DNA of 64,000 nucleotides, taken from positions 61,001 through 125,000 of the forward strand of contig NW_027437442.1 in assembly GCF_964204645.1 (NCBI RefSeq), in the 5' to 3' direction. This DNA is from Tubulanus polymorphus. Lineage: Eukaryota > Animalia > Nemertea. Positions 31,860 through 53,296 of the stretch are shown here, one piece after another. Position 1 is the stretch's first letter; the number at the start of each line of letters is the position of its first letter. The position numbers were made by a program, and so were the translations under genes. The notes under the pieces were generated by a model. That model did not search any database. It saw nothing but the letters and a program-made list of their open reading frames with translations, and was not told the DNA's origin.

Positions 31860-32445
31860 TTTTATGTTCGGTCGTTTCTATTCAGAATGAATATATAATT
31901 AGGATTAGCGCATGCGCATTGATCAAAAGCGCGCACGAATGCGCGGTTTGCTCAGTGGTATGATTTAGATATTTCATGTCGGTTGTTTCTATTTACATAA
32001 TGAATATATAATTATGATTAACGCATGCGCATTAAGCAAAAGCGCGCATGAATGCGCGGTTTGCCTAATGCGAACACGTTTAGATATTTCATGTCGGTTG
32101 TTTCTATTTACATAATGAATATATAATTATGATTAACGCATGCGCATTAAGCAAAAGCGCGCATGAATGCGCGGTTTGCCTAATGCGAACCCGTTTAGAT
32201 ATTTCATGTCGGTTGTTTCTATTTACATAATTATATATAATTATGATTAGCGCATGCGCATTGATCAAAAGCGCGCACGAATGCGCGGTTTTGCCTAATG
32301 CGAACACGTTTTGATATTTTCTGTGTTCGGTTGTTCCTATTTTACAGAATTTACATAATGAATATATAATTATGATTAACGCATGCGCATTAAGCAAAAG
32401 CGCGCATGAATGCGCGCTTTTGCCCAGTGGTATTATTTAGATATC
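31860..32445. repeat. Five tandem ~115-bp repeats inside the virus
   Basis: Unit anchors aatgaatatataatt (or a variant) at 31886, 31999, 32114, 32229 and 32357; each unit has cgcatgcgca and aaaagcgcgca. Confidence 0.92.
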
Positions 32446-32561
32446 AAGGAATCGAAACAACTTATCAAAAGCAGCGAGGAATGAAAAAGGATGACGTTGG
32501 TAGAAGAAATGGAAGAGGATTCTAAAATATTAACCAATTTAGTAAAAAATACATATAATAA

Positions 32562-33242
32562 ATGGAACCAGAACAACCACAAATTATCAATATTACAAAT
32601 AACACTGCTGGTGTTATAAATATATACTACAAGAAGTGTTCTAAATCTGAATTAGATAAATTAGCTATAACAGAATTTAGTAAGCGTAAGATTAGCAAAG
32701 ATGGTTTTCAATATTGTTGTAAAACTTGTTTTAAACTATATACCAAACAATATCGAGAAGATAATAGAGAAGCTTATAATGATTATATGACAGAATATAT
32801 GAGAGAAAGATATCAAACAGATCTTAATTTTAGATTGAAACAATGCTTAAGATCTAGATTAACACAATTATTCAACAAAGAAACACATTCAGAAACACTA
32901 TCTAATTTATTGGGTTGTTCACGTAAATTTCTTAAATCATGGATAATATATCAATTCGATGATAAAATGAATATAGATAATTATGGTGAATACTTTCATA
33001 TTGATCATGTGTTGCCGATTTCTAAATTTGACATGAGTGATGATTATAATAAGAAGGTAATATCGAACTGGAAAAATTTAAGACCTTTAGAAAAGAAGGA
33101 AAACATAATTAAATCTAATAAACTAGATTTACAGTTATATTTAGAACAGTTAACAAAGGCAAAGAAATTTATTGATCAATGGAACAATGATCCAAATAAT
33201 GAAGAATACGTTGAGGAATTTGATATCAAGGATCCGAAATGA
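32562..33242 (+). CDS. HNH-type endonuclease of the kind common in large DNA viruses
   Basis: Degenerate N-terminal zinc ribbon (KCSK...SKDGFQYCCKTC), LLGCS, FHIDHVLP...NWKNLRPLEKKENIIKSNK. Confidence 0.8.
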   Translation: MEPEQPQIINITNNTAGVINIYYKKCSKSELDKLAITEFSKRKISKDGFQYCCKTCFKLYTKQYREDNREAYNDYMTEYMRERYQTDLNFRLKQCLRSRLTQLFNKETHSETLSNLLGCSRKFLKSWIIYQFDDKMNIDNYGEYFHIDHVLPISKFDMSDDYNKKVISNWKNLRPLEKKENIIKSNKLDLQLYLEQLTKAKKFIDQWNNDPNNEEYVEEFDIKDPK

Positions 33243-33551
33243 CTTATCTGGACAGTTATAATTACTGCTCCTAATAGATAAACAAAACTAGTGAGATATC
33301 AAATAGAATTCAAATAAAATATATTAAAAAAACAATAACTTCAACTAGCCATTATTTCTATTTTAATTTCTGATATTTTCTTTTACAATTCTTTTCAAAA
33401 GAGAATACTTTATATCACAAATAAAAAATACTAAAAAAACAATAACTAATACTAAAATTCTTTACCTTTAACTAAGCTAGTATTAATCTAAAGAGATACT
33501 GGTATCATTTTATAATACTTATATTTTTTTTCGCTTTTTTCTCTAATATAA

Positions 33552-34156
33552 ATGTCAAAGAAATCGAGTAGAAGAATAGTATTGATATTGAAAAGACATT
33601 AGATGATTTGGGTATAAGTGATAATAAAGATACAGTTGTAACTAATTGTACTCAAGTTAATGGTAATATTGATTATGAATACTATTTATATTGTAAACAC
33701 CATCTAGAATTATTAATTGCTGGCGGGAAATGTAATCAGTTTATCGGGAAAATAATTACTTTTCAAGAATTAGATGCTATGAAACCCGATAAAGTAATAA
33801 AATATTTTAAGATTTATGAAGAAGCTAGATTAGCTAGAATAAATGATTCTATTTCAGATGGTATTGTCAAATGTTATTCTAAGTTATGTAACCAGTTAAT
33901 ACCAATTAATGATGAAAATAAATTATATAGTGATTCGAAAAATGACTATTTAGTTATGACTGAATTACAAAAATGGGTTGGTTATGCTTCATTCCAATTA
34001 GGATCGGTTATGACATTAATTTCTACTGGTGTCATAACATTTTCGAATATCAAGCCTATGGAATATAAATCAGGTAAGAACGAAACAGATGTACTACAAC
34101 CAAACGTCGAAACAGAAAATGAATCAGAACAAAAATTAACTAAAATAAATGAGTGA
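33552..34156 (+). CDS. Conserved viral hypothetical protein with a hydrophobic C-terminal segment (5' end frameshifted; track ORF 33608-34156)
   Basis: Homologous remnant in copy A (~22500-22885); TAAATG start at 33552. Confidence 0.65.
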
Positions 34157-34714
34157 TGAGTTAAGAAAAAGGCTAGATCTGAAAAACAAATTAAATGGAC
34201 AAGAGAATTAGGTAAAAGATCTTCAGAATTAAAAAAAGCTAAGAAAAAGAAATTAACTGATATAAATGAATCACCTGATATTGATTCAAATAATAATCCA
34301 TCTAATTCCTAATGCTGGAAGTAATTATAAATTATATAATATAGCTGCAAAGCCGCGATAACGGGTTTTCTGCACAGTCTTAGAATCCTGTTCAACGGTG
34401 GATTTCAACAAAGCATTTGATAAGGCTCAATATCAGCCATTGCTAAACAGGCTATTAGGAAACAGTATCAATGATAGGTCGCCCAAATGGCTCAGCAGTT
34501 ATCTCTGAACGGAAACTTGTAACCGAAATCAACGGAACGCCTCATCTTGGAATGAGACGGTCTAACTAGTAGCGTCACGCAAGGTAGTATCCTAAGTCGT
34601 CTTCTGTTTAATGTCCTGACAAATGACATACACAGTAATCCAAAATATACCAGACCGAGTAAATTTCCAAAACGATCTTAACACACTGTTCGACCAAAAA
34701 ACTTAATGTTCCGA

Positions 34715-37700
34715 CAAAACCACGGGTGACAAAACCAAAATTATGAATTGTCGCGGGTGACAAAACCAAAATATTGAATTGTCACGGGCGACGAAACAAA
34801 AATAATGAATTGTCGCGGGCGATAAAACCAAAATAATGAATTGTCACGGTCGATAAAACCAAAATATTGAATTGTCGCGGGCGATAAAACCAAAATAATG
34901 AATTGTCGCAGACGACAAAAACAAAATATTGAATTGTTGCGTGCGACAAAACCAAAATAATGAATTGTCGCGGGCGACAAAACCAAACTAGGGGTCCAGG
35001 GACACCATGCTCACTTAAGAAGTGGTTTCAAATGCTCAACAATCTAACAATTTCAATACATAACGCCCTCTAGTGACCATATACAAAAACCAATGACCTT
35101 GAAACCCACCACAATCATAGAACACGTGAGCAGCTATGATTTTGTAATCGATTGTGATAACAAAATATGCCTCGTTACCAATTTAATATGGAAATACTAA
35201 GTTATTCTACTATTCAACGCCCCCTGGTGACCATATGCAAAACCCAATGACCTTATACAACTTTGCAATTGATCATAGTAACAAAATATGCCTAGGTACC
35301 AATCTTATAAGGAAATGCTAAGCCATTCTACTATACAACGCCCCCTGGTGACTATATGGAATAATTAATGTCCTTAAAAACTCACCACAATTATAGACGA
35401 TGTCATGAACTACAACTTTGCAATTTATCATGGTAAAAAAATATGCCTTGGTACAAATATAGCAATACTAAGTTATTGTATCATTCAACGCCCCCTGATG
35501 GCCACATACAAAAACCAATGACCTTGAAACTCACCAAAATCATAGAACACGTTATGGGCTACAACTTTCCAATTGAATATAGTAACACAATATGCTTAGG
35601 TATCAATTTAATGTGGAGAAACTTTTTCCCACCTACGAATGAGTACTGATGACACCAAGATGGCCGCCAATTGCGTCATAATTGGCTGATCAAAGATACC
35701 TGTCCCAGGTATAAAACATCCCTCTCTAAAGAATACCCATCAGCAATTGCAATGAGAAATGGCAAACCAGTAGGAAGCTACGTGACCTAGAATTCTGGCC
35801 AAAATTGACATTTTTGGGCACTAAAAAGGTCATAGGACTGCCATCTTGAGTCAGATCGACCCAATTTTCTTATGCTGATGGGCCTTTGGTAGATTCAAAT
35901 ATAAACCATATAAACGAAAGATCAAGGTAATTGATCAAAGCGTCTTCAAAATTTCCCACGAAAACTTCGAAAATGTTTAAACAGTGCTGATTTTGGCAAA
36001 CAACAATGGCTGCCAGTCGGCCATCTTGAATCTGACAGGGCCAGTTTTTGGGCTGACGATGTGTCTAGGGTAGATACATGTATAAACCAAATATCGAGAC
36101 ATTACCTTGAAGCGTCTTCAAAACTTCCGAAAATAACTGGATTCCGTCTATGGACGGACTAAAAGTGAACGCAATAGCCCGCAGGGACTAAAGTCCCAAG
36201 TGGACTGAAAAATAATTGTCGCGGGCGACAAAACCAAAATATTGAATTGTCGCGGGCGACAAAACCAAACTAATGAATTGTCGCAGGCGACAAAACCAAA
36301 CTAATGAATTGTCGCGGGCGACAAAACCAAACTAATGAATTGTCGCTGGCGACAAAACCAAACTAATGAATTGTCGCGGGCGATAAAACCAAACTAATGA
36401 ATTGTCGCGGGCGACAAAACCAAACTAATGAATTGTCGCTGGCGACAAAACCAAACTAATGAATTGTCGAGGGCGATAAAACCAAACTAATGAATTGTCG
36501 CGGGCGATAAAACCAAACTAATGAATTGTCGCGGGCGATAAAACCAAACTAATGAATAGTCGCGGGCGATAAAACAAAAATATTGAATCGTCGCGGGCGA
36601 CAAAATCAAAATAATGAATGGTCGCGGGCGATAAAACCAAAATAATGAATGGTCTCGGGCGACAAAACCAAAATAATGAATTGTCGCGGGCGATAAAACC
36701 AAAATATTGAATTGTCGTGGGCGACAAAACCAAAAAAAGAATTGTCGGGGTGACAAAACAAAAATAATGAATTGTCGCGGGCTATAAATCAAAATTAATG
36801 AATTGTCGCGGGCGATAAAACCAAAATAATGAATTGTCGCGGGCGACAAAACCAAAATGGTGAATTGTCGCGGGCGACAAAACCAGAAAGGTGAATTGTC
36901 GCGGGCGACAAAACCAAAATGGTGAATTGTCGCGAGCGACAAAACTAAAATAATGAATTGCCGCGGGCGATAAAACCGTAATAATGAATTGTTGCGGGCG
37001 ATAAAACCAAAATAATGAATTATCTCAGGCGACAAAACAAAAATAATGAATAATCGCGGGCGATAAAACAAAAACATTGAATTGTCGCAGGCGATAAAAC
37101 CAAAAAAGAAAATTGTCGCGGGCGACAAAAACAAAATATAAAACCAAAATAATGAATTGTCGCGGGTGACAAAACCAAAATAATGAATTGTCGGTGGCGA
37201 TAAAACCAAAGTATTGAATTGTCGCGGGCGATAAAACCAAAATATTGAATTTTCGTGGGCGACAAAACCAAAATATTGAATTGTCGCGGGCGACAAAACC
37301 AAACTAATGAATTGTCGCGGGCGACAAAACCAAACTAATGAATTGTCGCGGGCGACAAAACCAAAATGGTGAATTGTCGCGGGCGACAAAACCAGAAAGG
37401 TGAATTGTCTCGGGCGACAATACCAAAATGGTGAATTGTCGCGAGCGACAAAACTAAAATAATGAATTGCCGCGGGCGATAAAACCGTAATAATGAATTG
37501 TTGCGGGCGATAAAACCAAAATAATGAATTATCTCAGGCGACAAAACAAAAATAATGAATAATCGCGGGCGATAAAACAAAAATATTGAATTGTCGCAGG
37601 CGATAAAACCAAAAAAGAAAATTGTCGCGGGCGTGACAAAACCAAAATAATGAATTGTCGGTGGCGATAAAACCAAAGTATTGAATTGTCGCGGGCGATA

Positions 37701-38032
37701 AAACCAAAATATTGAATTTTCGTGGGCGACAAAACCAAAATATTGAATTGTCGCGGGCGACAAAACCAAACTAATGAATTGTCGCGGGCGACAAAACCAA
37801 ACTAATGAATTGTCGCGGGCGACAAAACCAAAAAAAGAATTGTCGGGGCGACAAAACAAAAATAATGAATTGTCGCGGGCTATAAATCAAAATTAATGAA
37901 TTGTCGCGGGCGACAAAACCAAAATATTGAATTGTCGCGGGCGACTAAACCAAAATATTGAATTGTTGCGGGCGATAAAACCAAAATAATGAATTATCGC
38001 GGGCGATAAAACCAAAATATTGAATTGTCGCC
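34715..38032. repeat. 31-bp tandem satellite (aattgtcgcgggcgacaaaaccaaaataatg) in two blocks, about 34715-34988 and 36212-38032
   Basis: Directly visible head-to-tail units, each with the ttgtcgc-gg-gcgacaa palindrome and no unique spacers. Confidence 0.95.
34988..36209 (-). mobile_element. Second Helentron-like element nested in the satellite, with ~120-155-bp internal repeats
   Basis: Interrupts the array. End hairpins ggggtccagggacacc and gggactaaagtccc; ggacggac micro-repeat; four internal units with cgccc(c/t)ctg/a motifs. Confidence 0.7.
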
Positions 38033-39002
38033 GAATGATGCAATCGTGAGTTGAAATAATACCTGAAAAAATCGATGCACAGACATTTACTTTATATATC
38101 TACTTGAACAATCGAGCCTACTCAGTAATATACTCAGTTTTTACGAAACCTGGAGTTTTTGTTTCAGAGAAATTTGAGTATCAGTATCCGATGCTATATA
38201 CTAACGTTAACGTTAGTTATCATCGCTCCGTCATGCTAAGTTATACATTTCATGTCAACCAGTATCTACGGGCAGCTGTACAGTGTGTACACACTATATC
38301 TGAATACGAGGCTGGAATAACAGGCTCACTTCACGTAGGTTCATGATGAGGAGAAACTCGCAGCTGATCCCCGGAACGACGATGTAGTAACACACGTCGA
38401 TTCGTCGATGTTTACGGCTCGACAGTGCTTTTAAAATCTAATGTAGTAAATTTCCAGTGTATCGGTAATATGATTTGATGAGGAAAATGGGCTATTGTTA
38501 AAATCACTGTTTGAAGACCACGACTGAATGTGAAGTCTGCGGCAATAAATTAGTTCATTTATACTTGAATTGATAATCGAAGTGACAGTCGGCCTGCGGG
38601 TTGATTTCGGGATGACGACTCGAAAAACATGTCGCCCCATTGAATGGGGCTAAATTTTCGATGTTTACGGCCCGACAGCGCTTTTGTAACGATGATTCGT
38701 GAAAAAACACGCGGGCTATTTGTAGATCTCAGTGAGCTGAACGATATTATATGGATTGTATATGAAACAGCGGTAAGGTAACAAAGCCTATGTTCTTTTG
38801 GTAAAAATAGTGTGGAAGAAAATAATAATAATAATAATCACGCGGATATCAATAGGGTTTTCTGTGAAATAACAGAAAACCCTAATTACAATTGGATTAG
38901 TAACAGTTATTATATTATCCGGTGTAATATATAAATCAAAATTCAAATCCGATGATAAAGATGATTGCAATGACAATATTATTATTAATGGATTAAAAGA
39001 AG

Positions 39003-40115
39003 ATGAAAAAAGAACAATATTTAAGAGATTTATATTATAACCCAGAAAGTGAAGTATCATATTCTAACGTTACAGAATTATGGGGTAAAATTAAATCTGA
39101 TAATGAAAATGGTGCCGTACGGCACCCACATGGTGATATAAAATATAGTGAATTAAAATCATGGTTACAAAATCAACCAACATATCAAATCCACAAGAAA
39201 ATCGATAAAACTTATTTAACAAGAAAAGTTATAGTTTCATATATCGATCAACAATGGCAAGCAGATTTAATTGACATGAAGAACTTAGAAGAATACAACA
39301 AAGGATATTTCTGGATATTAAATGTTATAGATATATTCAGTAGATACGCATGGTCAATTCCAATCAAAAATAAAACTGGTATAGAAGTTACAAATGCTTC
39401 TAAATCTATATTTAAAGAAGCTATTCCAGATAAGATACAATTTGATGAAGGTAAGGAATTTTATAACAAACACTTCAAAAAACTATTATCTGAAAACGAT
39501 GTAGATTATTTTTCAACACATTCAGATAAAAAAGCATCTATTATAGAAAGATTTAATAAAACATTGAAAACTAGAATGTGGAAATATTTTACTGCTAATG
39601 AAACATATAAATATATCGATGTATTAGATGATTTAGTGAAAGGTTATAATAATTCTAAACATAGTTCTATAAATATGAAACCTATACAAGCTAGAAAAGA
39701 AGATAATTCGGAAATAGTTTGGAATAATTTATATGGTGCGTTTGTTACACATGATTTCGGAGAACCTAAATTTAAAATAGGACAACACGTTAGAATATCT
39801 AAATATAGAAAAACATTTTATAAAGGTTATACCCCAAATTTTACAGAAGAAATATTCAAGATTAAAAAGATAATATTAACTAAACCTTTTGTTTATAAAC
39901 TAGAAGATCTAAAAGATGAAGAAATATTAGGTTATTTCTATGAACAAGAATTATCACTTGTACCAAACCCAGATGAAATAGAATACAAAATAGAAAAAGT
40001 ATTGAAAACAAAAACTCTTAAAGGAAAAAAGTATTCTTTGGTGAAATATAAAGGATACGATGATAAATTTAATGAATGGATTTTATCTAGTAAAATTAAA
40101 AGAATAAATGAATAA
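39003..40115 (+). CDS. Retroviral-like (rve) DDE integrase with a C-terminal chromo-like domain
   Basis: Intact 370 aa: WQADLIDM, IDIFSRYAW, QFDEGKEF, IERFNKTLK, YNNSKHSSI..KP, FKIGQHVRI, YKIEKVL...LVKYKGYD..FNEWI. Confidence 0.96.
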   Translation: MKKEQYLRDLYYNPESEVSYSNVTELWGKIKSDNENGAVRHPHGDIKYSELKSWLQNQPTYQIHKKIDKTYLTRKVIVSYIDQQWQADLIDMKNLEEYNKGYFWILNVIDIFSRYAWSIPIKNKTGIEVTNASKSIFKEAIPDKIQFDEGKEFYNKHFKKLLSENDVDYFSTHSDKKASIIERFNKTLKTRMWKYFTANETYKYIDVLDDLVKGYNNSKHSSINMKPIQARKEDNSEIVWNNLYGAFVTHDFGEPKFKIGQHVRISKYRKTFYKGYTPNFTEEIFKIKKIILTKPFVYKLEDLKDEEILGYFYEQELSLVPNPDEIEYKIEKVLKTKTLKGKKYSLVKYKGYDDKFNEWILSSKIKRINE

Positions 40116-40718
40116 AGATTTATTTATATTCGAACCGCATAATATGTTAGTTACTGGTGTAACCAATTGTGGTAAAACACATTTCATATTAGATTTGTTA
40201 GAAACTATTTATAAGAATCATTTTGATAATATAATATTATTCTGTCCTACTTATGAAATGAATAAAACATATAATAGAGATATAGTTAAGATAAAAAAGT
40301 TTATTATATTAAATCCTAAAACAGTAAAAGAAAATTTAGATAATTGTATAAAAATAGCAATTGATACTTATAAAGGATCAAATACATTATTTATTATAGA
40401 TGATTGCGCAAATTTACATGATTCAAAAGTTAGAGAAAGTGAGTTATGTTATCTAGCTTTCTCTGGGAGACATTTTGGGATAACAACATGGGTTTTAAAT
40501 CTAAATTTATTTCAATTGTTAAAGACTTTAGGGAGAATATAAGATTTCTAGTTTTATTTCATAACAAAGATAAAAAATCTATGCAACAATCATTGGAAGA
40601 AAATCAAATTATACCTACTGAATTACATGATGAATATATGAATAAATTAAAGAATAATAAAGGTTCAACATTATTAGTGAGATTACAATTTCCTTATGAA
40701 TATAAATTTATAAAATAA
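40108..40718 (+). CDS. A32/FtsK-like genome packaging ATPase (frameshifted near 40505)
   Basis: Walker A GVTNCGKT, Walker B FIIDD, SGRHFGITTWVL arginine-finger region; the C-terminus is in the 40446-40718 frame. Confidence 0.92.
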
Positions 40719-41276
40719 AATTTATATACCTATGTATTAGATACCCTATTAGATACCCTAATACCTGATACCCTATTAGATACCCTCATACCTGATACCC
40801 TATTAGATACCTTAAATACTTAAAACCCCCTTTTTTAAAATAAATATTATTTATACAATTTTCAACCAATTTATTTTTATTTTTTCAACTAATATATGAA
40901 TAAGTTTGAAAATAATAAAGGTTATTTATTATTACTGAGGTTTCAATTTCCATATGAATATCAGTTTATAAAATAAGATATTTTATGTATTAGATTGTAT
41001 TAGATATGTATTAGATATGTATTGGATACCTTAAATACCTTAAATACTTAAAACCCCCTTTTTTATTTACTATTATTTTATACAATTTTCAACCTTTATT
41101 ACTTTTTGAGTTAAATATAATTAATATCTTAATCACTGTCACTATCAGACCCCCCTAACAATTTATTCAAATTCTCTATTATTTTTATACTTATTTTTCA
41201 CCTTTTTTACCGCATCATCAATAGTTGTTTCATTGTTATGCTTATTCATCCAATCAAATTTATCATTATTTTCTAC

Positions 41277-41939
41277 TTAATGTTTCATAGAATCTTTATT
41301 AGTGTTTGCTCCTAATATTTTATTTACAGTGTTTGATCCTAATATTTCATTAGCATCGGTTAGATCTAATTCATCTTTATTAGGTGTTGCTAATAATAAA
41401 TCTTCATATATTTTTTCACCATTTACTTTTTGATTTGAAACAAACTTTGTAACATATCTAAATGGGTGTTCTATAAATTCTTTTAAACCAACACGTTCTA
41501 TAACATTATTTATATGTACCCTTGTATTCATATGTTTATTCCAATTTGATGTAGCGTTTGAAAATTCACTTTTACAATATCCACAATAATTTCTATTTTC
41601 ACTAACATTTAATATTATTTCATTATTAGATGTAGAAGGTATTACATTATTAGATGTAGTAGGTATTACATTATTAGATGTAGAAGGTATTACATTATTA
41701 GATGTAGAAGGTATTACATTATTAGATGTAGGAGGTATTACATTACTATCAATTACATTACTTAAATTATCAACAACACCACTTTTATTATTATCGATTT
41801 CTATTAGTTTAGTTTTATAAATTTTGAAAATAGGATCAAATATCAAAGCTATATTACAAGGTATTACATAATATAAACCATCATTATTTTCATGTGTATC
41901 GATGTATGGAATATGTTTATATACTTTACCTCCTTCCAT
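41277..41939 (-). CDS. Viral hypothetical protein with NNVIPSTS repeats and a C2H2-like finger
   Basis: 220-aa ORF; 24-bp tandem repeat ~41620-41750; YCGYC...HMNTRVH. Confidence 0.7.
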   Translation of the reverse strand: MEGGKVYKHIPYIDTHENNDGLYYVIPCNIALIFDPIFKIYKTKLIEIDNNKSGVVDNLSNVIDSNVIPPTSNNVIPSTSNNVIPSTSNNVIPTTSNNVIPSTSNNEIILNVSENRNYCGYCKSEFSNATSNWNKHMNTRVHINNVIERVGLKEFIEHPFRYVTKFVSNQKVNGEKIYEDLLLATPNKDELDLTDANEILGSNTVNKILGANTNKDSMKH

Positions 41940-41971
41940 TTATTATATAAATTTTTATTAAAGTTAAAATT

Positions 41972-43220
41972 TTAATACATAACACTATTTAATTGAGAAT
42001 TTACAATAATTAATTGCGCGTCAGATATAATATAAATGTGCATTTTGAAATTTTTGATTCCTTTATTCTTTGTCCTGAATAATTGTATTCCATCTTTAGT
42101 GTTTTGCAGTTTTTTTCCAGAACCATTTAATGAATTATTCTCTGTTGTTCTAAAATCTAACCATAATGCATATTTATTACCGGTATAATAATCAATTTGA
42201 TTAATGTTACAATTTTCAGATGATTTCACTTTTTCATTCATAAAATGTTTTCTAATTTCTGGCCATTGATCTATCATTCTCATTCCTTGACAAAATATTT
42301 TATTTGCTATTCCTTCGATAGTTATTTCTACTTTTATTATTTCAGGATTATAATAATTATCAACATTTATTGCGCCATTAGTATATGTTGGAATGGTAAA
42401 AAAATATTAATATACCTTTAATAGATCTTATTGGGAAGTTAATATTCTCATTAATAATTTCATCATTTGCATTAATAGTTACAGTTTTAAATTTATCAAT
42501 ATAATCATATAATAATGAAAATCCTTGATTGTATTGAGTTTGAATTATACTTGAAATATTTTCATCAGTTACTGTATCATATTCTAAACATATATTCGAT
42601 AATTTATAACTCATATCTTTATTAACGCTAGATATTACAATTTCATTTACAGGAGCAAATGTTATTTCGAATATAACGTCTTCTTGAATTGCGTATTTAT
42701 ATAAAGGTGCATTGTTATTTATCAATTCAAAGTCTAATGGAATTTTATATTTGCTTCCATATATACTTTTTATCAATTTATCTACAGCATTAGTTAATAT
42801 TGCGCTATTAGCTTCTGATCTTAATTTATTTTGGTTTTCTGATTGGATGCCTTGAAATATCATATTATTTCTATTTTCTTTAGTTAACCATAAATCTTTA
42901 TAATGCATAAATAAATTATAATCATCAAATGAGAAAACTGTTTCGGGACCAATCTTTATAGTTAATTTTTTAATCAAATATCTTCCAACATTATCAACAA
43001 CATAATTATTATTATTACCGGTTACGTTTATATCGGCTGATAAATAAGTACTATTTGGAACATAAAAAGTATTTTGTGTTAATCGAGGAATTCTAACATA
43101 TAAAGTTTCATCAGGATTAATATTAGAAGGGTTATGAGTAATTATATGATGTGATCTTTCTGCTTTAATAGCATTAGATATTCTATGATTCTTAGAAGGA
43201 TTGATATAACTCCCACTCAT
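41972..43220 (-). CDS. Probable major capsid protein (double jelly-roll), frameshifted near 42400
   Basis: About 415 aa when joined; beta-rich pattern (THNPSNI...LYVRIP, NVGRYLIKKLTIKI, YKIPLDF, ICLEYDTV, YALWLDFR) recognised as a polinton-like virus capsid type; position in the structural block. Confidence 0.75.
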
Positions 43221-43240
43221 TTATTTAACAAATAAATTAA

Positions 43241-44701
43241 TTATTTATTTTTTATCATGTTTAGTAACCCAAAAATAATTGCACTTACAACTGTAATTAA
43301 AAATAAAATAATATGTTCAGCAGCAAAGTTAATAATGTTTCCTGCAGATTTCAATATAAAACCAACAATTGATGCAATAACTCCTGGCAATGCAGCAGCA
43401 GATTTTTTAGATAGTTCCCATAAATATTTTGCTAATTTCTTTAAACCATCCTTAACTTTATCTTGTATAGAATTATCATTCGGGGGTTTATCTGGTTTAT
43501 TTGGAGTAGGAGTAGATTTTAAAGCATTTGATATTGCTAAACCAATTGTTGTAAATAACATAGTTACAGCTGTTAGAAATGAAAGAATTGTTATTCCTTC
43601 TAATTCAAATAACAATTTTATTCTATCTTTCAATGATATTTCAGAATTTGGTTTTATCAACAAATCTTTAAAAATAACTTTTAATCTATTAATATTATAA
43701 TCATATGATTTTAATAATAATTTAATTTCTTCTTTTTGTAATTCTATGTTATAGTCTAAATCATCTTTTTCTTTTTCTAAATACGCATTTCTTTTTTTAA
43801 ATTCGATTTCTTCAATAACTTTATTATCTCTATCTAATTTTAGTTGTTCCGATTCTTTTCTTGATTTAAATAATTCATCTTCTAAAGTTCTAATTTTTAA
43901 ATCTCTTATACTTTTATCATGCGCAATTTTATCAGATGCAAGTCTTATACTAATAATTTCTCTAATTGCTTTATCAGAAAATATATTATTTAAATCTTCT
44001 AATTGTTGATCTGTTGCATCAAGTAATCCATTTGGTAAAAGTTTTTCAATTGGAACTTTATTTGATTTAAGTTTACTAGTTTTGGAATTTATATTCTGTT
44101 CGGAGTTTCTTTCTGGTTCTAAATTATTATCGATTATTTTTAATAAGTCATCAATTCTTTCACTAAATACTCTTATATTATCATCTCTTTCTTCTTGTGT
44201 AACATCAGTTATTTCATTACTAATACTTATTCTTTTAATTATATCTGGTTTTAATTTTCTCAAAGTTGATTCCGCTAATATTTTATTTAGTTTTGTCTTT
44301 TGATTAGTGATATCAATATAATAATCATCTTTCAATTTATAATAATATTCACCATTTAAATATTTTAAATCTTCTACTAAAAATCTGGCACCTCTGTAAT
44401 TTATATTATATCCAGATCTTTCAAATGCACGTTGAAACTTATATATAAATTCTTTATTTTCAAAATCTCGACTCGATAAACCTTGATTTCCATTTTCAGG
44501 ATTTATTCTCGATTTAGTTCTTCTATCAAATTCATCTGTTAATGGGGCTTTAGAACCACTATCTGCTAAATTAGAATTATATGTTGATTCATTACCATCA
44601 TCAATATTAGTTTCTGCATCATTATAATCATCATCAATATATCCTTCATTATTATTTCCCATTTCTCCCATTTCATAATCTTCTCCACCTTCTACATCCA
44701 T
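43241..44701 (-). CDS. Coiled-coil protein with C-terminal hydrophobic/amphipathic helices (putative virion membrane or entry protein)
   Basis: Intact 486 aa: acidic N-terminus, heptad-rich middle, TM-like segment, Pro linker, then two further hydrophobic helices. Confidence 0.75.
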   Translation of the reverse strand: MDVEGGEDYEMGEMGNNNEGYIDDDYNDAETNIDDGNESTYNSNLADSGSKAPLTDEFDRRTKSRINPENGNQGLSSRDFENKEFIYKFQRAFERSGYNINYRGARFLVEDLKYLNGEYYYKLKDDYYIDITNQKTKLNKILAESTLRKLKPDIIKRISISNEITDVTQEERDDNIRVFSERIDDLLKIIDNNLEPERNSEQNINSKTSKLKSNKVPIEKLLPNGLLDATDQQLEDLNNIFSDKAIREIISIRLASDKIAHDKSIRDLKIRTLEDELFKSRKESEQLKLDRDNKVIEEIEFKKRNAYLEKEKDDLDYNIELQKEEIKLLLKSYDYNINRLKVIFKDLLIKPNSEISLKDRIKLLFELEGITILSFLTAVTMLFTTIGLAISNALKSTPTPNKPDKPPNDNSIQDKVKDGLKKLAKYLWELSKKSAAALPGVIASIVGFILKSAGNIINFAAEHIILFLITVVSAIIFGLLNMIKNK

Positions 44702-44717
44702 TTACATAATAAAAAAA

Positions 44718-46133
44718 TTAAAATTTAAAATATAATATTCCTCCGATTACAATTCCTATACAAGTTATAGCTAATTTAGTATTTTCATGGGATTTATTAT
44801 CATCATTTAGTTTAATTATATCATGTTGAATATCACCGTGTGGGTGCCATACGGCACCATTATCAGTTTTTATATTTTCTGATGTATTGTAATCTTTTAT
44901 TTTAGAATCATTATTTAATTTAATATTCTTAGTTTTAGTTTCTGTTGATTGAATATGTTTTTTATTTTTTTCACCTACCATTAATTTTGGAGCAGTAATA
45001 ATCTTTTTATTTATATCATTCAATCCAAATGAATTATTTATTGTTGCAGTTTTAATTAGATTATTATAACCAATTATATTTCCCATCTTTAATACTAAAT
45101 CATTAGAAATAATTGATAGATTAGGGCCTATACAATAATTTAGTCTTACATGTGATTTATCTAAATAATTTTGATATCTTACAATGTTTTCTGGAATCGA
45201 TCTATTTTTATCATTATGAATAGAATCTTCAAATGATACTTTGAATTGTTTCTGTGTATCAAATGATGTATTTAAATTTCCAATTATTGGGGATCTTGTG
45301 TCAACTTGCGCACCTAAAATACATATCAAATAAGTTCTAATAGATTGATTTATTCTTTTTACACCTGATTTTGTAAAACCTTCATTATTTTCTAAAATGA
45401 AATAAACCCAACCATTATTGTTTTCTTGTTTTAAATTATCATAAAATGTCGGTAATTTATTGAAATTTAATGTTTCTAAATCCTTAGTTTCTATTTTACC
45501 ATAACCTAATTTATTACTATAGATATTATACAAACTATTAGATGGTATGGGAAGTGCACAATATTCTCCAATCTTTTTAGGGCAAGGAAGTGATCTTATT
45601 GTTCCAATTTTTGTTCAAAAATCAGAATTATTTATATCTATATTAAATTCATTACAAATTTTATAAAACTTTGATAAATTAATATTATTATCTAATTCTT
45701 TAAAATACCTAGATCCTGGTAAAGCGCACTCTAATTCATTTAATATTATTCTGATTTGAAACTATGTATGAAATCTAAATAAACTTTGAATTAATTTATA
45801 TTTAGAATTATTCAAATGATCATTCCAACTAATTCCACAACCTGTTGTTGCACAATAAACTGCAAAATTTAATTGGTTCTGCCAATACTTCATATTAGAT
45901 TTTAATAACCATTGTTTTTCATCTTTCAATTTTTTAAAATTAATTGTATACACATGAAATATATTTTCCATCTTTGCATTAAAATTATTAGTTTCAGTTA
46001 CATAAATTTCTAAATTAGTAAATGAATCTAAAACTTCATTTCTATATGTAATATCTTTATTAAAATCTATTGCTGGAATATTATATTTAATTGATTTATT
46101 ATATTGGAAAGCTTTTGGAAAACTATCTACCAT
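44718..46133 (-). CDS. Conserved viral hypothetical protein with C-terminal TM anchor (disrupted; track ORFs 45762-46133 and 44718-45533)
   Basis: WQNQLNFAVYCATTGCGIS N-terminal block; coding-like sequence continues through the gap; terminal LAITCIGIVIGGILYF. Confidence 0.7.
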
Positions 46134-46157
46134 TTATTTAATTAAAAAATTAATAAT

Positions 46158-46584
46158 TTATTTATTCTTTTAATAATTTATCTTGTTCTTCAACTGTTAT
46201 ATGACCATTTAAACTTATTATATAATCTAGTGTATTCTTCAATTTATTAATTTCTTTTATATTAGTTTTAATTTTTTCTTTATTACTTTTTATATTTAAT
46301 TTTGAACTTATACCAGTTAAAACACTTGAACTTAATCCTTATACACCAATTGATATAGCTAAAGGTGTTAATGGGCTGAATATTGCTAGAAATGTTATTA
46401 CAGAACTAATTGTAACCGAACCACTGATAGTAAGATAATATATAATTTTACTTTTTAAATATTTTTTCTTTTTAACTTTTAAGTCACTTTAAAATTCTAA
46501 TATTTGTTTTTCTAAATATGTTTTTAATTTAGTTTTATTTATATCATGAGCAATAATATCAATATTATCAACATTATCTCCCAT
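46158..46584 (-). pseudogene. Small 2-TM viral protein gene with two in-frame stops (not in the ORF track)
   Basis: TAAATG start; reads MGDNVDNIDII...YYLTISGSVTISSVITFLAIFSPLTPLAISIGV*GLSSSVLTGISSKL... Confidence 0.65.
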
Positions 46585-46603
46585 TTATTTAGCAAAAAAA
46601 TTA

Positions 46604-47026
46604 CTAATTAGTAAACTTATACGCCACAAATATAACAATAACTGTTCCACCTAAAATCCAAATTATTTCATATTTCTTCTGTTCATTACTTGGGGTATAA
46701 TAATCTGATAATTTAGGTTTGTATAGATGTAATTTTTCTTTATTTGTTACTGCGTTATATAAACTCATTGCATCATCAACTGATTGAAAATCTCTATGTG
46801 AAATCTTCTGATCATATAATTCTTTATTGATGTAATCCATATAGTTTTGTCGTTTTTCTCTATATTCTTCCGCTGCTTTATTGTATTTCTCTAATGCTAA
46901 GTTATGTCTTTTTTGTTCTCCTAATGAACTATTTTTATCAATATGCTTAAATAAATAACCGCCACCAGTAAATGCTAAAGCGTTAACAATTGCCGATCCT
47001 ATAATAGTTATAATTGCAGAAGCCAT
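46604..47026 (-). CDS. Small viral protein with N- and C-terminal hydrophobic helices
   Basis: MASAIITIIGSAIVNALAFTGGGYLF...EQKRHNLALEKY...IIWILGGTVIVIFVAY. Confidence 0.8.
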   Translation of the reverse strand: MASAIITIIGSAIVNALAFTGGGYLFKHIDKNSSLGEQKRHNLALEKYNKAAEEYREKRQNYMDYINKELYDQKISHRDFQSVDDAMSLYNAVTNKEKLHLYKPKLSDYYTPSNEQKKYEIIWILGGTVIVIFVAYKFTN

Positions 47027-47050
47027 TTATTTAGCAAAAAAATTATGCAT

Positions 47051-47272
47051 TTATATGGGAGGAATATATTTTTGTTTTTCTAAATAATCAATAGTTAAAT
47101 TAGATAAAGTAACTGCTAATGTTAATTTTAAAATATCATTGATATCAAATCTATCAACATTAACACTTCCCATTTTGAATACTTTTTTTAATACCATTGA
47201 ATAACCAACAGTTCCAACTGATAGTAATGCTCCATTATATAATCCAGTTATTATCCACTTATTATCACTCAT
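47051..47272 (-). CDS. Small hydrophobic viral protein
   Basis: 73 aa, tightly packed, TAAATG start, two hydrophobic stretches. Confidence 0.75.
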   Translation of the reverse strand: MSDNKWIITGLYNGALLSVGTVGYSMVLKKVFKMGSVNVDRFDINDILKLTLAVTLSNLTIDYLEKQKYIPPI

Positions 47273-47614
47273 TTATTCATCAAAAAAATTACTATCATCA
47301 AAATATTTAGTTAACTTATTTATGATTAATTCAACATTTATTTCATTACTACTTTTATGATTATCATATATTTTGGTTAATATGTTTTTAATATCATCAA
47401 TAATTCCATCTTCGTTTAATTCATAATATTCTAAAGGTGATTTAATTAAATCAATTACTTTTTCTATATTATAATTTTCTTTATTTATCATTGATGCATT
47501 GTTAAATGATTTACTTTTTATATCAGTAATTACATCATTTAGTTTGATTCTCATTTCTTTACCATGTTTAAAATCAAACCCAAAACATATACTCGGTCCA
47601 ACAGTTATATTCAT
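47273..47614 (-). CDS. Viral hypothetical protein
   Basis: 113 aa, abuts its neighbour, TAAATG start. Confidence 0.7.
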   Translation of the reverse strand: MNITVGPSICFGFDFKHGKEMRIKLNDVITDIKSKSFNNASMINKENYNIEKVIDLIKSPLEYYELNEDGIIDDIKNILTKIYDNHKSSNEINVELIINKLTKYFDDSNFFDE

Positions 47615-47631
47615 TTATATAGTGAAAAAAA

Positions 47632-48390
47632 TTACTCTCTACATCTTATAACTAATTCATAAATTACAGGGAAATTATTTAAATCAATTAAGTATCCATT
47701 ATGATTTCTAATTTCTAATCTAAAATTATTAAAACGAGGAATGCATGGTTTGAAATCACATTCTGTTAAATTATAATTTTGCGTTCCAAATTCTTTAACA
47801 TTCTTCAATGGTAAAATGTTTAGTAAACCAGAATTACAAGTTATATCTTTAGTTGCTTCGAATGTTTTTGTAGGATCGATTAAATTGCAATAAATATAAA
47901 AATGCGTGTAAGGTATTAAGTTTGGTGTAACAGCATCAATATTTGTAAAAGATCTATCTGGAAGAATTCCTAACAGTTTAGCTATAGGTTTTTTTACCAT
48001 AAATTTATGTTTTTCACTATTAGACAACCTTATCTTTATTCTATCAGAACTATCACTTTTTAAAAATCTAATACTAAACCCGGAACTACTACCTAATTTG
48101 TGCCAGGCTTTTCTATTAATTTCTTGTGCTAATGTATCTAAATTATATAACCCCGGTTTTAAATATATATAGACCCATGAATCTATGTGTCTATTAAAAA
48201 CTAAAAAGGCTCTATGTTCAATAGTTTTATTCGATATATTATAAAAAGAATTGCATAAACTTATATTAACTAATTTTAAATCAACACAATTCTTAAATTC
48301 TCTATCTAATTGTACTAGTAAATTATGAGATTTATAATTTGTAAGTTTTCTTGAATCAACAAATATTCTGTATTCTTTTAATTCCGCCAT
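47632..48390 (-). CDS. Probable minor capsid protein (penton, single jelly-roll)
   Basis: IFVDSR start, LVNISLCNSFYNI, LKPGLYN, AKLLG, FYIYCNLI, LEIRNHNGYLIDLNN: the pattern typical of polinton/virophage pentons. Confidence 0.78.
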   Translation of the reverse strand: MAELKEYRIFVDSRKLTNYKSHNLLVQLDREFKNCVDLKLVNISLCNSFYNISNKTIEHRAFLVFNRHIDSWVYIYLKPGLYNLDTLAQEINRKAWHKLGSSSGFSIRFLKSDSSDRIKIRLSNSEKHKFMVKKPIAKLLGILPDRSFTNIDAVTPNLIPYTHFYIYCNLIDPTKTFEATKDITCNSGLLNILPLKNVKEFGTQNYNLTECDFKPCIPRFNNFRLEIRNHNGYLIDLNNFPVIYELVIRCRE

Positions 48391-48404
48391 TTATTTTACA
48401 TATT

Positions 48405-48758
48405 TTATTCGAAATCTATTTCGTGATGCCCTTTTTCATTCTTACCTTTGTATACGAAGTAGAAATCTCCAGAACATAATTCTTCTAGATCTTCACTTGA
48501 TAATCTATGAAATCTATTCGGTAAATATGTTCTGATTTTATATGTATTTCCTTTGAATCCTTCATATTCTAAGTGTATAACTAATTTATCTCCATAGTTA
48601 TTAGTAACTGTATCAATATTTGTAATTAGATATTTCTTATGGATTGTTAATTCTGTTAACTTTTTGAATTTATAATCTACAGATTTTACATTTGTTATAT
48701 CTTTAATTCTATCTAGAAATAATTTGTTGTTCTCACTGTGTGTTTGTTTACTCTCCAT
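48405..48758 (-). CDS. Small viral protein, possibly an OB-fold ssDNA-binding protein
   Basis: FKKLTEL...YLIT..TNNYGDKLVIHL...TYLPNRF...FVYKG; homologue in copy A. The fold assignment is a guess. Confidence 0.6.
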   Translation of the reverse strand: MESKQTHSENNKLFLDRIKDITNVKSVDYKFKKLTELTIHKKYLITNIDTVTNNYGDKLVIHLEYEGFKGNTYKIRTYLPNRFHRLSSEDLEELCSGDFYFVYKGKNEKGHHEIDFE

Positions 48759-48787
48759 TTATAATACATATTTTTATTAAAATTTGA

Positions 48788-51700
48788 TTAACACGTTAGA
48801 ATTCTTTTCATTATCTCGTTCTCTTTTGTTTCTTCTCTTTTAAATTTTAAGTATTCATCTAAATTACAACCATAAGCAACTGTATGAATTCCATCATCTA
48901 AAATATATCTTTTATCATCAAATGGGTTTAGACTTATCTTTTCAATTTCTTCAATAAACATTTCATGATCTTCAGATCTTAAACATATCATCTTATGTTT
49001 TCTAACTTCTTCATTGAATATACAATTGATGTAATCTTTGAAATGAATATTCTTTTCTACTACACTTTTGGTTATTCCTTTTAACTTTTTAGCTTCATGT
49101 TCTTTAGTTTTATATGAATACATTTTAGATCTAATACCTATGAACTCTATCATTTCTTCACCACCTAATTCACGGGAACTTTTTTATTATCATTGCTAAA
49201 CAATTCATGATCTTTAGGATAGTTACTAAAATCAAAATGATGTTTTAATGTTTTTAAATCATCAGTTATGTTATATGTTTTTATCTTTAATATGTAAGAA
49301 TCTGTATCAAAGTATAATATTTCTATATGTTTTTATCCAAAAAGTGGTTGTAATACATTATAATAGAATTCATACATTAGTAATTTTGATAATTCTAAAA
49401 CTGAAGCGCCAACATAGATTGGTTTATTAAATTTCATTGATGTTCTTCTCATTTTAACTGCGGCTAAATTTTCATCAAATATTCTGTTACCTATAAATTT
49501 AGGATATGTTTGTAAATGTCTAATTCTTTTACCATTACTAACTAACTCAATATCATTTCTATTTCTAATATTTTCACAAGTCTTACCATAGAATGCATTG
49601 TTCATTAACTTGAAGAAATCATTCTCGAAATCAGTTTTAGCTTCAGTTCTCTGTTTGGTGTTAAAATCTATATATTTTTCTAACCACTTAGATTGACTAA
49701 ATGAAATATATCTATGTACTTTTTTTAGAATCATTCCTTGTTTTAGATAAAACTTTAACATTCTGTAATGTACTACATAATTATATTTATCTTCTTGAGT
49801 TACCATTAACTTTTCTGTATGAATAAAATTTTCGGGTTTAATTCTTTTTTGATAATTTGATAATTCTTCATGAGTAACGGTTTTATGTTCGGGACAGTAT
49901 GCTAGATTTCTAGATTTAAATTTAATATGTTCAGGATATTCTAAATCTACAACAAAGAAGTAACCAGTATCTGAATCATCTGCAATATCTAGAATTCTTT
50001 TCTTCCAATCAAATTTATCATTATTTTCATTCTGTAAAACTTCACTTATTTCAAATACTCCATAAGGTTGTGGTTCCATCATTGCCCAACCATACAAATT
50101 ATTTGCATCTATATATAATAACTTATCCAGGGTTATCATTTACATTGAAATATCTATCACCTAATACACCTGAAACTCCTCCTCTTATAGATTTTTCAAA
50201 TAATAATAATTGATCTATATTTGTTAACAAATCCATTTTTATATCTGTAAATTTTAATCCACAATCCCATGTTAAACCTGGGCTAGAATAACAATGACAA
50301 GGATCAATATTGAAATATTTTAGGTTTACATCTCAAAACCTTTCGAATATATCGGTTAATAATAATACATCTGATTTTAAATATAAATCTACTAATTGTC
50401 CATGATTTTCTATTTTGAAATGATTCCAAATATTCAATGTTCTATTATATACTTCATCTTTAACATATTCATTTTTTAATTCATCATAGAATTGTTCTTT
50501 TAATAATTCAGTTATATTGAAATCATTATGATTTTTATAGAAAGAATATGGAATTGCTCCTTTATATCTCATTAATTGAAAATCATCATTATTTGGGTAG
50601 TGTTGTTTTAATATTTTTAATTCATCAGCAACTAATGATTTTGATAAGTTATCTAATGAACTATTTAAAAATCTATATGAATCTATAAATCTTAAACACC
50701 CAAATTGGAATGATATATAATTCTCAGATGTTTTAGCTAACATTCTAAATTTATAAGTTGGTATTTTATCTTTTGATCTATTTGAATTTAATCTTTCTAT
50801 TTCATTATTAATTTCTTCTATTTTATGGCATAACTGTTTGATGAATAAATGTGCATCATATCCTGATAGATTATGAAATATAACTGGTACAAAATTAATT
50901 TTCTTAGCTTGTAAGTTACAATTCTCATGTGCAGTGCCTCTAAACTTTCCATTCAAATGATCATGGTCTCTTACTTTTTTATCTCTAAAATTAAATATCT
51001 TTTCACAATAATAACATTTATCTGCAAACGCAAATTCTTCTTTATCTTCTTCTGTCATTATAATTTCTATATTTGTATTCAGTAATTTACTAAATCTTAT
51101 TTCATATTCAATTAGTAAGTCACAAAAATGATTGACAACATTTTCATTTCTGTAATTACAATATTCACTTTCAATTAGTTCTGGATAATCAGATTTAATA
51201 TATAACCCGAAAGCAGCAGCTGATTGATGAATCTTTTTAATAGTATTTGTTTTTGGTGGTTCATCTGAAAAATCATTTTCATTAGAATTTAATTTCTTTC
51301 TTTTATAATATATTTCTTTTCTATCTTGATCAGTTAATTCTTTATTTAATGATTCAAAATCTCCATATATAACAAATGGAACTTTATCTTTGTAATCTTA
51401 TTTTTTGAATTCTAATATTTTATCTTTTTCATTTGGTAAAACTAATTTACAATAATCATGATTTTCACATAATTGTTTATGATTTAATAATGTACTTTCA
51501 TTACTGAATCTATGTAAACATTTTCTACAAAGATATATTTTATGGTGATCACTTTCTGTTCTAAAGAATAAATCTATTTGTTTAATCCACATATAATGAT
51601 TCTCATAATATAGTATATCTATAACATCGTTTGAATCATAATCTTTTGATAGATATAAAGGTTCTAATGTATAATGTTTTATATTGTTACCTTTTGTATT

Positions 51701-52813
51701 TGGTAATTTGATTAAATCAAATACATTTATTCTTAAATTATTATCTCTTTCTATTTTTGGGATGTTTTTAATTATAACAGGATACTTATCTATCTTATAA
51801 TTATTTTCAAATTGTTTATAATTTGTTAATCTATAAGTATGTTTATTATAATCTTCAACTGGGTTTAAGCAACTTATTATAGCCTATAGAAAACATTTAT
51901 CATCTTCATTTTGTACATTTATTACAGCATTAGTTTTAAATGGTAGTTTAATATAACTTGATGCTTCAATATCTGGTTCTTTATAATATGATACATTATT
52001 TTCATCAATTGGTTTTGATTTAGTTAACTTATTATATTTTGTGTTATAAACATGTAAAGTCATAAATATTATTTCATCAAATATTAAACCAGATCCTTCA
52101 AAATATTTCTCTTCTATGTTAGTTTTTACTTCATTATAAGATTTATCTTATTTATCATCTATATGTTGTTTTGAAATAATATGTTGTGAATGAGAATTTA
52201 TATTATATATTGGTTTATCTTCAGATTTTATGAATTTAACTTTAACTGATATACTAATTTTAGGATATTCAACATCAGTTATTATTTTTATTATTTCTTT
52301 CATATTATCTAAAAGTTTTTTATTTTCTTCTAATGTTTTTCCTTCATGAAATTTAAACTCGATAGCTGCTGGACCAGTATCACTTTTATATGCTTCGGTT
52401 ATCTCTATATCTTTTTTATTATCCAATAAATTAATATATTTTCTTACATCTTCCATGTATGGTCTTTTATTGTTTAATTTATTTTTTATGTTTTTAATTG
52501 TCTTCTGTTTCTTATCATTATCTTTATCAAAATAATCTTCACCTAAGATATCATTATTGATATTTCTAATATGATTTTTAGATTTCAAATGTTCTTTATA
52601 ATATCTTTTATCACTGAATGATTGATTACATGTATCACATTTGTATGTTTCTTTTTCATTGTTTAATTCATCTAATTTAGTTTCTAATATATCATCTTTA
52701 TATTCTAGTTTCAATTTATTCTCTAAATGTGTTTTAGTTTTATTGTGTCTTGCTTTTTGGGATTTATCTATATTGATTTTACATGTGGAACAGTAGTACT
52801 TATTTGCTTCCAT
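48788..52813 (-). CDS. Protein-primed DNA polymerase B with N-terminal C2H2 fingers and an endonuclease VII-like domain (several stops/frameshifts)
   Basis: Exonuclease motifs YGDFES, FHNLSGYD, YLKSDV; RDHDH...GTAHENCN; polymerase motifs IRGGVS, YIDANNLYGWAM, FKLMNNAFYGK, YFDTDS (~49300), IRSKMYS, KLKGI. Confidence 0.96.
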
Positions 52814-52871
52814 TTTGATATCAAATTTTTTTTTTAAATTGATTTTAGAAGTTCAATGATTTATATCATGT

Positions 52872-53296
52872 ATTATTTCAATCACACTTTACTAACACTT
52901 TTAATGTTTAAAAATCTAACTCACACAAATATGAATATTGAAATAATGTTGTAAATATATACTTTTATATTGAATAATCTGTCAATTTAAATGTTATTCA
53001 TGTACATGATTATTTTAAGAGTAATAGGGGTAATGGGCTTTCAGGTTAAAGGTTGAATGGTCGAGTTCATTTAAAAACAAAACATTAAAAGTAATTTAAA
53101 ACTATAATATATTTTCATAACCGTGTGTATTTCAGTTGAATAATAGAATAATTATTATTATTAAAATATATTTGATTATATGAATTTGTGTATTTTAAAT
53201 AAATCAATTGGTCGCGGAGCGGAGCGGTAGCGAAGTGGAGCGACCAATTGATTTATTTATTTACCTTTGGCCTGAAAGCCCATTACCCCTATTACT
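52872..53296. repeat. Right terminal inverted repeat region, with an inner terminal-motif copy at 53020 and a 20-bp stem hairpin
   Basis: agtaataggggtaatgggctttcagg at 53020 faces the true terminus at 53263-53296; stem 53196-53215 / 53240-53259. Confidence 0.92.

Follow-up and report, generated by a model that had tools for sequence, protein, structure and literature searches.

Mavericks, or Polintons (Polintoviricetes; adintoviruses, Starrett et al., PMC8502044), share a protein-primed DNA polymerase B (pPolB), an rve integrase with a chromodomain and an A32/FtsK-type packaging ATPase. They also share a double jelly-roll capsid protein, a penton, terminal inverted repeats and integration into animal germlines. 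Animal Polintons might be nuclear viruses that act autonomously, transposons, or satellites of large DNA viruses, and the literature that we consulted establishes no helper for canonical animal Mavericks. We analysed 64,000 nt of the nemertean Tubulanus polymorphus (assembly GCF_964204645.1, contig NW_027437442.1, positions 61,001 to 125,000), hereafter the window, which contains a provirus, copy B, and two further copies, A and C. Copy B is a Maverick/Polinton by its pPolB, rve integrase, termini, capsid, penton and ATPase, and its genes follow a poxvirus-like, lineage-specific promoter grammar, centred on the start context TAAATG, that is independent of base composition. No adenain protease was recognised among its 16 genes, several conserved ones of which are unassigned, and no protease family was found in a Pfam scan of 19 open reading frames (ORFs) of the window. 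The main text of PMC8502044 does not describe poxvirus-type promoters for adintoviruses, and 21 sister elements that share the capsid group of copy B lack TAAATG.

Virophages share the late promoters of their helpers (10.1101/068312). Mavirus and the endogenous mavirus-like elements (EMALEs) of Cafeteria, with Cafeteria roenbergensis virus (CroV), are likewise integrated and capsid-coding, lack an RNA polymerase and carry helper-type late promoters (10.1101/068312). The polinton-like viruses (PLVs) of Tetraselmis, with TetV-2, likewise have promoters matching the late promoter of a large virus (10.1101/2025.10.09.676808). Provirophage clades differ in promoter motif, as do the Maverick classes described below. 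The protist provirophages have a known cultured helper, and their reactivation and protective effect have been shown, whereas copy B has an animal host, a poxvirus-type motif and a putative helper. Copy B has two features of the virophage lifestyle: no RNA polymerase of its own was found, and its promoters match the late promoter of a large DNA virus. It may work like a provirophage, yet it belongs to the Polintons and not to the Lavidaviridae. Its capsid is not of the virophage type, as the mavirus capsid ranked 47–50 among the structural matches (TM-score 0.50–0.52), below iridovirus and PBCV-1 capsids (0.62–0.68).

The PLVs associated with entomopoxviruses (Barth et al. 2024, PMC11296320) are likewise Polinton-like and were proposed to be hyperparasites of poxviruses in animals. 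They differ in their size (~12 kb), their origin from occlusion bodies, their divergent capsids and their tyrosine recombinase or lack of a detected integrase; the main text of that paper holds no promoter analysis, and copy B is a canonical rve/pPolB Maverick of a multi-copy germline family. The late and intermediate promoters of vaccinia virus share with copy B and its relatives a TAAAT fused to the start codon, a T-rich core ~6 nt upstream and the bidirectional arrangement CATTTA...TAAATG. Poxviruses and the yeast element pGKL2 encode their own polymerase (PMC6211774), whereas copy B does not. In titles and abstracts, with most subscription journals and supplements beyond reach, we found no paper describing poxvirus-type TAAATG promoters in Polintons.

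Gene starts in copy B and its relatives

TAAATG was present at 14 of the 16 gene starts of copy B. The original prediction, made from the letters of the sequence, had listed 13 such starts, all of which read TAAATG; the start of the HNH-like gene (ATG at 32562), which it gave as TAAAATG, reads TAAATG as well. The integrase (AAGAAGATG, 39003) and pPolB (ATCAAAATG, 52813) lack the motif, as had been stated. TAA is the second commonest triplet before any ATG, and 27 of 296 ATGs (9.1%) on the coding strand of 41000-52850, real starts included, are preceded by TAA, so the chance rate of about 1 in 16 assumed earlier was too low. With this background, 14 or more hits in 16 starts have a binomial P of 3e-13; at 12.5% it is 2e-11. 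The motif also occurs at pPolB of copies A (ATG at 2010, minus strand) and C (ATG at 19317), again in agreement with the prediction. True stop-start overlap accounts for one of the 14 sites (47272), which has a T7 run too, rather than for the few sites previously allowed for.

Upstream sequences were of two kinds. The T6-7 run said to lie 6–8 nt before TAAATG at most structural-block genes was found at seven of the 14 starts (33552, 44701, 46133, 46584, 47026, 47272 and 47614), and the major capsid gene lacks any run of five or more T. The A-rich sequence reported upstream of 41939 and 48758 is AATAAAA, 10 nt upstream of both; it also lies 9 nt upstream of the penton start (48390) and 11 nt upstream of the pPolB start of copy C. 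This core thus occurs 9–11 nt upstream of four starts in the window and at six of 79 starts anchored as described below, and on none of the capsid, 486-aa and 140-aa genes.

A search with a capsid alignment retrieved 48 metagenome loci with unknown hosts. Homologous proteins from 16 gene families were used to anchor gene starts; at least one start could be anchored in 45 loci and the window, and three loci without one (L036, L044 and L047) were dropped. TAAATG was found at 82 of 89 anchored starts in 25 elements and at none of 88 in 21 elements, two classes whose cut-off was chosen after the data had been seen. After removal of identical contexts, the counts were 79 of 86 (positive class) and 0 of 77 (negative class). 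Among the 28 elements with at least three starts, 13 scored 0, 15 scored 0.67–1.0 and none fell between. L012 (0/2) was counted as negative despite its place within the positive clade and an out-of-frame TAAATG directly ahead of its capsid start.

Base composition did not follow these classes. The GC content was 36–44% among the positives L006, L007, L008, L037, L038 and L043 and 26–31% among the negatives L015, L020, L022, L035 and L041, and a pPolB-bearing element with 22% GC had TAAATG at one of 13 starts. AT-rich negatives and GC-richer positives rule out composition as the cause of TAAATG. The enrichment is lineage-specific. On an unrooted capsid tree (35 rows) the class label needs three changes, at least two of them forced by starred branches, compared with 11.8 in shuffles, and on an unrooted ATPase tree (29 rows) it needs four. 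Since the label changes several times, the trait marks more than one lineage.

Stop-start overlaps account for five of the 82 positive-class sites. Ten relatives have head-to-head CATTTA...TAAATG starts with gaps of 15–30 nt, which cannot come from such overlap. Integrase genes make up four of the seven positive-class exceptions; three of these genes have TAAAT or TAAAAT just upstream of the ATG, and the integrase is the gene most often without the fused motif (four of five). Position -3 was T in 91% of positive-class starts and A in 76% of negative-class starts. By Kozak's rule a purine is expected at -3, and A there fits a host-type start context.

Likeness to poxvirus promoters

The poxvirus late promoter consists of a T-containing core, 5–7 bp and TAAAT(G/A) (PMC5294985). 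Its initiator TAAA is read directly by the core of the poxvirus polymerase (PMC12917281), and slippage at TAAAT gives 5' poly(A) leaders (PMC6211774). For intermediate promoters, a consensus AAANAA-N11-13-TAAA has been reported (PMC7911368), whereas another source gives their core no consensus (PMC12917281).

We compared spacing with five chordopoxvirus stretches, from a set of 13 poxvirus stretches around A11; in these five, 60 starts read TAAATG. Runs of at least five T ended 5–8 nt before TAAATG in 27 of 30 Maverick cases and in 15 of 18 poxvirus cases, with a mode of 6 in both. In the positive class T peaks at -15 to -10. The T profiles of Mavericks and poxviruses correlated over -22 to -4 (r = 0.67), maximally at zero shift (0.58 at +/-1, -0.31 at -4 and -0.02 at +4); its P value is inflated by the non-independence of orthologous promoters. 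The T-run accompanied 27 of 79 TAAATG sites at starts and 12 of 178 elsewhere. Poxvirus A10 and A11 are also arranged head-to-head as CATTTA...TAAATG, with a gap of 14 nt. A start-fused TAAAT(G/A) and a T-rich core ~6 nt upstream, as in poxvirus late promoters, are thus both present. The proposed division into late and intermediate promoters is suggestive: the T-runs match late-type spacing, and the A-rich cores fall short of the intermediate consensus. T-runs were also considered as trans-splice acceptors, but they are not followed by a conserved AG, and this idea was dropped.

IMG/VR was scanned for a single T-run-TAAATGG site, which yielded 120 loci from 12 of the 64 parts of the collection. 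The other ORF starts of these loci read TAAATG in 30 of 457 cases, and only L108, the A10-A18 region of a chordopoxvirus, had the motif at most of its other starts (five of seven). In the 45 viral loci of this set with <30% GC, the proportion was 7 of 124.

Genes, termini and surroundings of copy B

The features of the window are collected in Table 1. Some labels (HNH-like, zinc finger and SSB-like) are based on weak matches or on motifs.

Table 1. Copies of the Maverick/Polinton element in the window and the genes of copy B (window coordinates).
Feature	Position	Strand	Remarks
Copy A, partial	1..2095	-	pPolB start: T6 + 7 nt + TAAATG (ATG 2010)
Copy C, more decayed	18727..27050	+	TAAATG at pPolB (19317), 117-aa homologue (18940) and small gene (23923); integrase without TAAATG
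Copy B, Maverick/Polinton provirus	30652..53296	.	22.6 kb; 5'-AGT...ACT-3' ends
Left terminal inverted repeat	30652..31145	+	Internal fold-back 30652-30798 / 30847-30993
HNH-like endonuclease gene	32562..33242	+	TAAATG start; Pfam HNH weak, in homologue only (E 0.0055)
Conserved ~205-aa gene, broken near start	33552..34156	+	T6 + 8 nt + TAAATG
Small conserved gene	34149..38996	+	TAAATG start; split by ~4.5-kb insertion of tandem/host repeats (~34330-38880)
rve integrase, C-terminal chromodomain	39003..40115	+	Pfam rve E 7.8e-9, Chromo E 8.9e-5; without TAAATG
A32-type packaging ATPase, frameshift near 40500	40108..40718	+	Pfam Pox_A32 E 1.8e-9; TAAATG start
Zinc-finger protein, shorter than relatives	41277..41939	-	AATAAAA + 10 nt + TAAATG
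Double jelly-roll major capsid protein, frameshift near 42400	41972..43220	-	TAAATG start
Conserved 486-aa gene	43241..44701	-	T7 + 6 nt + TAAATG
Conserved ~440-aa gene, internal stops	44718..46133	-	T6 + 7 nt + TAAATG
SLATT-like two-helix membrane gene, broken	46150..46584	-	T7 + 6 nt + TAAATG; weak SLATT match of homologue below cut-off
Conserved 140-aa gene	46604..47026	-	T7 + 6 nt + TAAATG
Conserved 73-aa gene	47051..47272	-	T7 + 6 nt + TAAATG; sole stop-start case
113-aa gene	47273..47614	-	T7 + 7 nt + TAAATG
Penton (minor capsid protein), 252 aa	47632..48390	-	AATAAAA + 9 nt + TAAATG
117-aa gene, possible single-stranded DNA-binding protein (SSB)	48405..48758	-	AATAAAA + 10 nt + TAAATG
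pPolB, broken in several places	48788..52813	-	CAAAATG start behind A-tract
Right terminal inverted repeat	52868..53296	-

The termini place copy B well beyond the span of 33530..52835 given by the original prediction, which was too short. Maverick/Polinton ends follow the rule AG...CT with a 6-bp target duplication; copy B conforms, and is flanked by the duplication GTGAGC at 30646-30651 and 53297-53302. The fold-back at its left end (30652-30993) has 147-nt arms at 93% identity, and at the right end (53020-53296) the terminal ~35 nt are repeated in inverted orientation around a smaller hairpin.

The capsid homologue P0002 (77% identical) gave a model with a pLDDT of 91.6 whose top folds were iridovirus and PBCV-1 capsids (E 2e-16); the major capsid profile had no sequence match in PDB. 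The best fold for the low-confidence penton model (pLDDT 62) was the mavirus penton (E 1.3e-6). One piece of pPolB matched Pfam DNA_pol_B_2 (PF03175, E 2.4e-5) and Endonuclease_7 (E 2.2e-5), and tblastn with an intact relative of 1176 aa gave an E of 5e-171. The nearest named Atlas cluster of the 117-aa gene was phi29 SSB (score 0.85), which is a lead only, and the Atlas search offered no explanation for the zinc-finger protein. In copy B several small genes are broken, besides those for the capsid, the ATPase and pPolB, and this copy could form no particles.

Five repeats of ~115 bp with GCGCATGCGC palindromes lie upstream of the HNH-like gene (31851-32436), and a 31-bp tandem repeat forms long arrays (34607-35092 and 36075-38030) in the gene-splitting insertion. 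Region 31346-31481 resembles 21999-22140 of copy C (69% identity) and has intron-like GTAAGT...TTTTAG signals in copy B, without a clear ORF; a host-transcribed gene could have left this remnant.

The provirus family is multi-copy in its host: run X1 contributed 18,751 contigs that align to the stretch in four identity classes, a figure that is not a copy number. One run presumed to be RNA gave five partial contigs on 38800-53300, which speak neither for nor against expression. We take the flanking ORFs to be G-protein-coupled receptor (GPCR), long interspersed nuclear element (LINE)-like and P450-like genes, and the host thus to be an animal. Between copies A and C lie what we take to be an intronless GPCR-like ORF (16955-17932, minus strand) and a LINE-type reverse-transcriptase fragment (12539-13714, minus strand). 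The start context of one host GPCR gene is GGAAACTATG.

Among the relatives, the positive-class Maverick L001 carries a deoxynucleoside kinase gene with a T-run TAAATG promoter (L001:10340-10981, minus strand; Pfam dNK E 1.7e-31); a search with the kinase gave four unnamed close relatives and no virus link. A family of 207-aa membrane proteins (L010:2348-2956, L013:238-903 and L023) has N-terminal PSAP/PTAP and YPxL-like motifs, which we presume to be late domains that recruit the endosomal sorting complexes required for transport (ESCRT). Neither the capsid gene nor the capsid alignment found relatives in viral_contigs or genome_contigs. The ATPase alignment found one weak viral match and, among bacterial genome bins, four short contigs, three of which show Maverick-type genes and no TAAATG start. 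These three (L186, L187 and L188), with a Maverick-type ATPase and its neighbour genes, are probably mis-binned animal DNA.

Transcription of the elements and their possible helper

The reading that we favour, with somewhat more confidence than doubt, is that copy B is a decayed Maverick of a virophage-like satellite lineage, whose genes would be read in trans by the pox-type RNA polymerase of a co-infecting pox-like virus. We infer such helper dependence on well-motivated grounds. In agreement with the original prediction, none of the 16 genes of copy B was recognised as coding for an RNA polymerase, by a profile search that would miss a very divergent small subunit.

Transcription would then start inside the AAA of the initiator, so that the T at -3 would lie outside the mRNA, and the mRNA would bear a slipped 5' poly(A) leader. 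The T-run promoters of the structural-block genes would act as late promoters, and the genes with A-rich cores (SSB-like, zinc-finger, penton and pPolB of copy C) may have intermediate promoters. As the initiator is read by the core of a cytoplasmic polymerase, the template would probably be a non-integrated copy, which would have to reach the cytoplasmic factory of the helper for expression. For the same reason, the mavirus model, in which a late factor moves into the nucleus, is a poorer fit. In the factory, the element's own pPolB would replicate it and its own capsid would enclose it, and the integrase would insert copies into the germline, where they would decay. How a chromosomal copy would escape from the genome is a gap in this mechanism.

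Several points weigh against this reading. Half of the TAAATG starts of copy B, including that of the capsid gene, lack a T5 run. The A-rich cores do not match AAANAA-N11-13-TAAA exactly, and the P value of the profile correlation is inflated, as stated above. Poxvirus genes avoid internal TAAATG, whereas positive-class Mavericks do not: in a count that left out seven near-duplicate or ambiguous loci, the coding regions of three of the 13 poxvirus stretches held 19 sites against 30.2 expected (observed/expected ratio, O/E, 0.63; z about -2), and those of the positive class held 68 against 66.0 (O/E 1.03). No poxvirus polymerase or transcription-factor family was found by Pfam in 19 window ORFs and 33 positive-class proteins of relatives (32 of 68 listed ORFs and one capsid). 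A comparison of 220 poxvirus A4-A24 ORFs with the 48 loci and the window revealed no poxvirus gene homologue, the one match being a chance match to a host gene. No pox-like helper was identified for the host or for the 48 loci. Moreover, yeast virus-like elements use TAAA initiators too (PMC6211774), TAAAT has been reported in some ranavirus promoters, and transcription of other polintoviruses has been seen where no helper is known (PMC8502044; PMC11244446).

We regard it as unlikely that host nuclear RNA polymerase II (Pol II), with or without an element factor such as the zinc-finger protein, reads the compact T-core/TAAA initiator, or that TAAATG serves as a signal for translation; the resemblance to poxviruses would then be convergent or a relic of past dependence. 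The transcription of other polintoviruses in host tissues or after demethylation (PMC8502044; PMC11244446) speaks for such a role, as do nuclear integration, the tolerance of internal TAAATG and the failure to find a helper. The spacing between core and initiator, however, is that of poxviruses and far shorter than the -25 to -30 of a Pol II TATA box. A T at -3 is also a poor context for scanning, and it is missing from the sister elements with their prevalent A. Finally, AATAAAA is not depleted in the coding regions of AT-rich positives (~4 per kb, O/E 1.00), although in the negative class there is no significant depletion either (0.83); for the poly(A) signal AATAAA, O/E was 0.99 in positives, 0.83 in negatives (not significant) and 0.98 in poxviruses.

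Less probable still is a pox-type polymerase supplied in trans from a source that is not a poxvirus, whether an autonomous sister element, a pGKL2-like cytoplasmic plasmid or another nucleocytovirus with the same initiator. To our knowledge, no poxvirus has come from such a host, which would favour this source. Yeast virus-like elements do have their own RNA polymerase, related to that of poxviruses, and show slippage at TAAAN initiators (PMC6211774), but their upstream sequence is of the early type, not a T-run ~6 nt before TAAATG. Other families also differ in their reported motifs, with TATA in African swine fever virus (ASFV), AAAAT-type motifs in mimivirus and iridovirus and TCTA in CroV, and no polymerase subunit was found in the 48 loci and the window. 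The view that TAAATG is a by-product of AT richness and tight stop-start packing, without promoter meaning, draws on the 21–24% GC of the copy B core, the frequency of TAA before ATG and the five overlaps among 82 sites, but is refuted by the 9% background, the zero scores of AT-rich sisters, the low counts in the 22%-GC element and in viral loci below 30% GC, the persistence of the motif in GC-richer positives and the head-to-head pairs.

One TAAATG-negative Maverick has a different signature. In L018:623-8918 (49% GC; L019 is a near-duplicate), TATA lies 1–16 nt before the ATG at eight of nine anchored starts, mostly with a T-rich core ~9 nt upstream. The pattern, defined post hoc on this one independent element, occurs at six of nine starts and at seven of 390 other ATGs. 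It resembles the ASFV late promoter, and the helper may be asfarvirus-like. TATA is close to the ATG in L015 and L017 too.

Returning to the reading of copy B as a member of a satellite lineage, we tentatively extend it, as a possibility with less in its favour than that reading itself, to animal Mavericks more widely. These would include several lineages of germline satellites, each dependent for late transcription on its own kind of cytoplasmic large DNA virus: the poxvirus-type TAAATG occurs in at least two capsid lineages and an asfarvirus-like T-core/TATA in one (L018/L019). They could represent a polymerase-borrowing stage before the capture of a polymerase by yeast cytoplasmic virus-like elements. 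By analogy with mavirus, the elements may act in antiviral defence, as inherited agents.

With a promoter signature that is visible in the sequence, elements can be sorted into a putatively helper-dependent and a host-type class, and the signature predicts the kind of helper to seek. If the favoured reading is true, provirophage biology would extend to animal germlines, and the TAAATG elements would flag unseen pox-like viruses in invertebrates, in the wider reading those of marine invertebrates.

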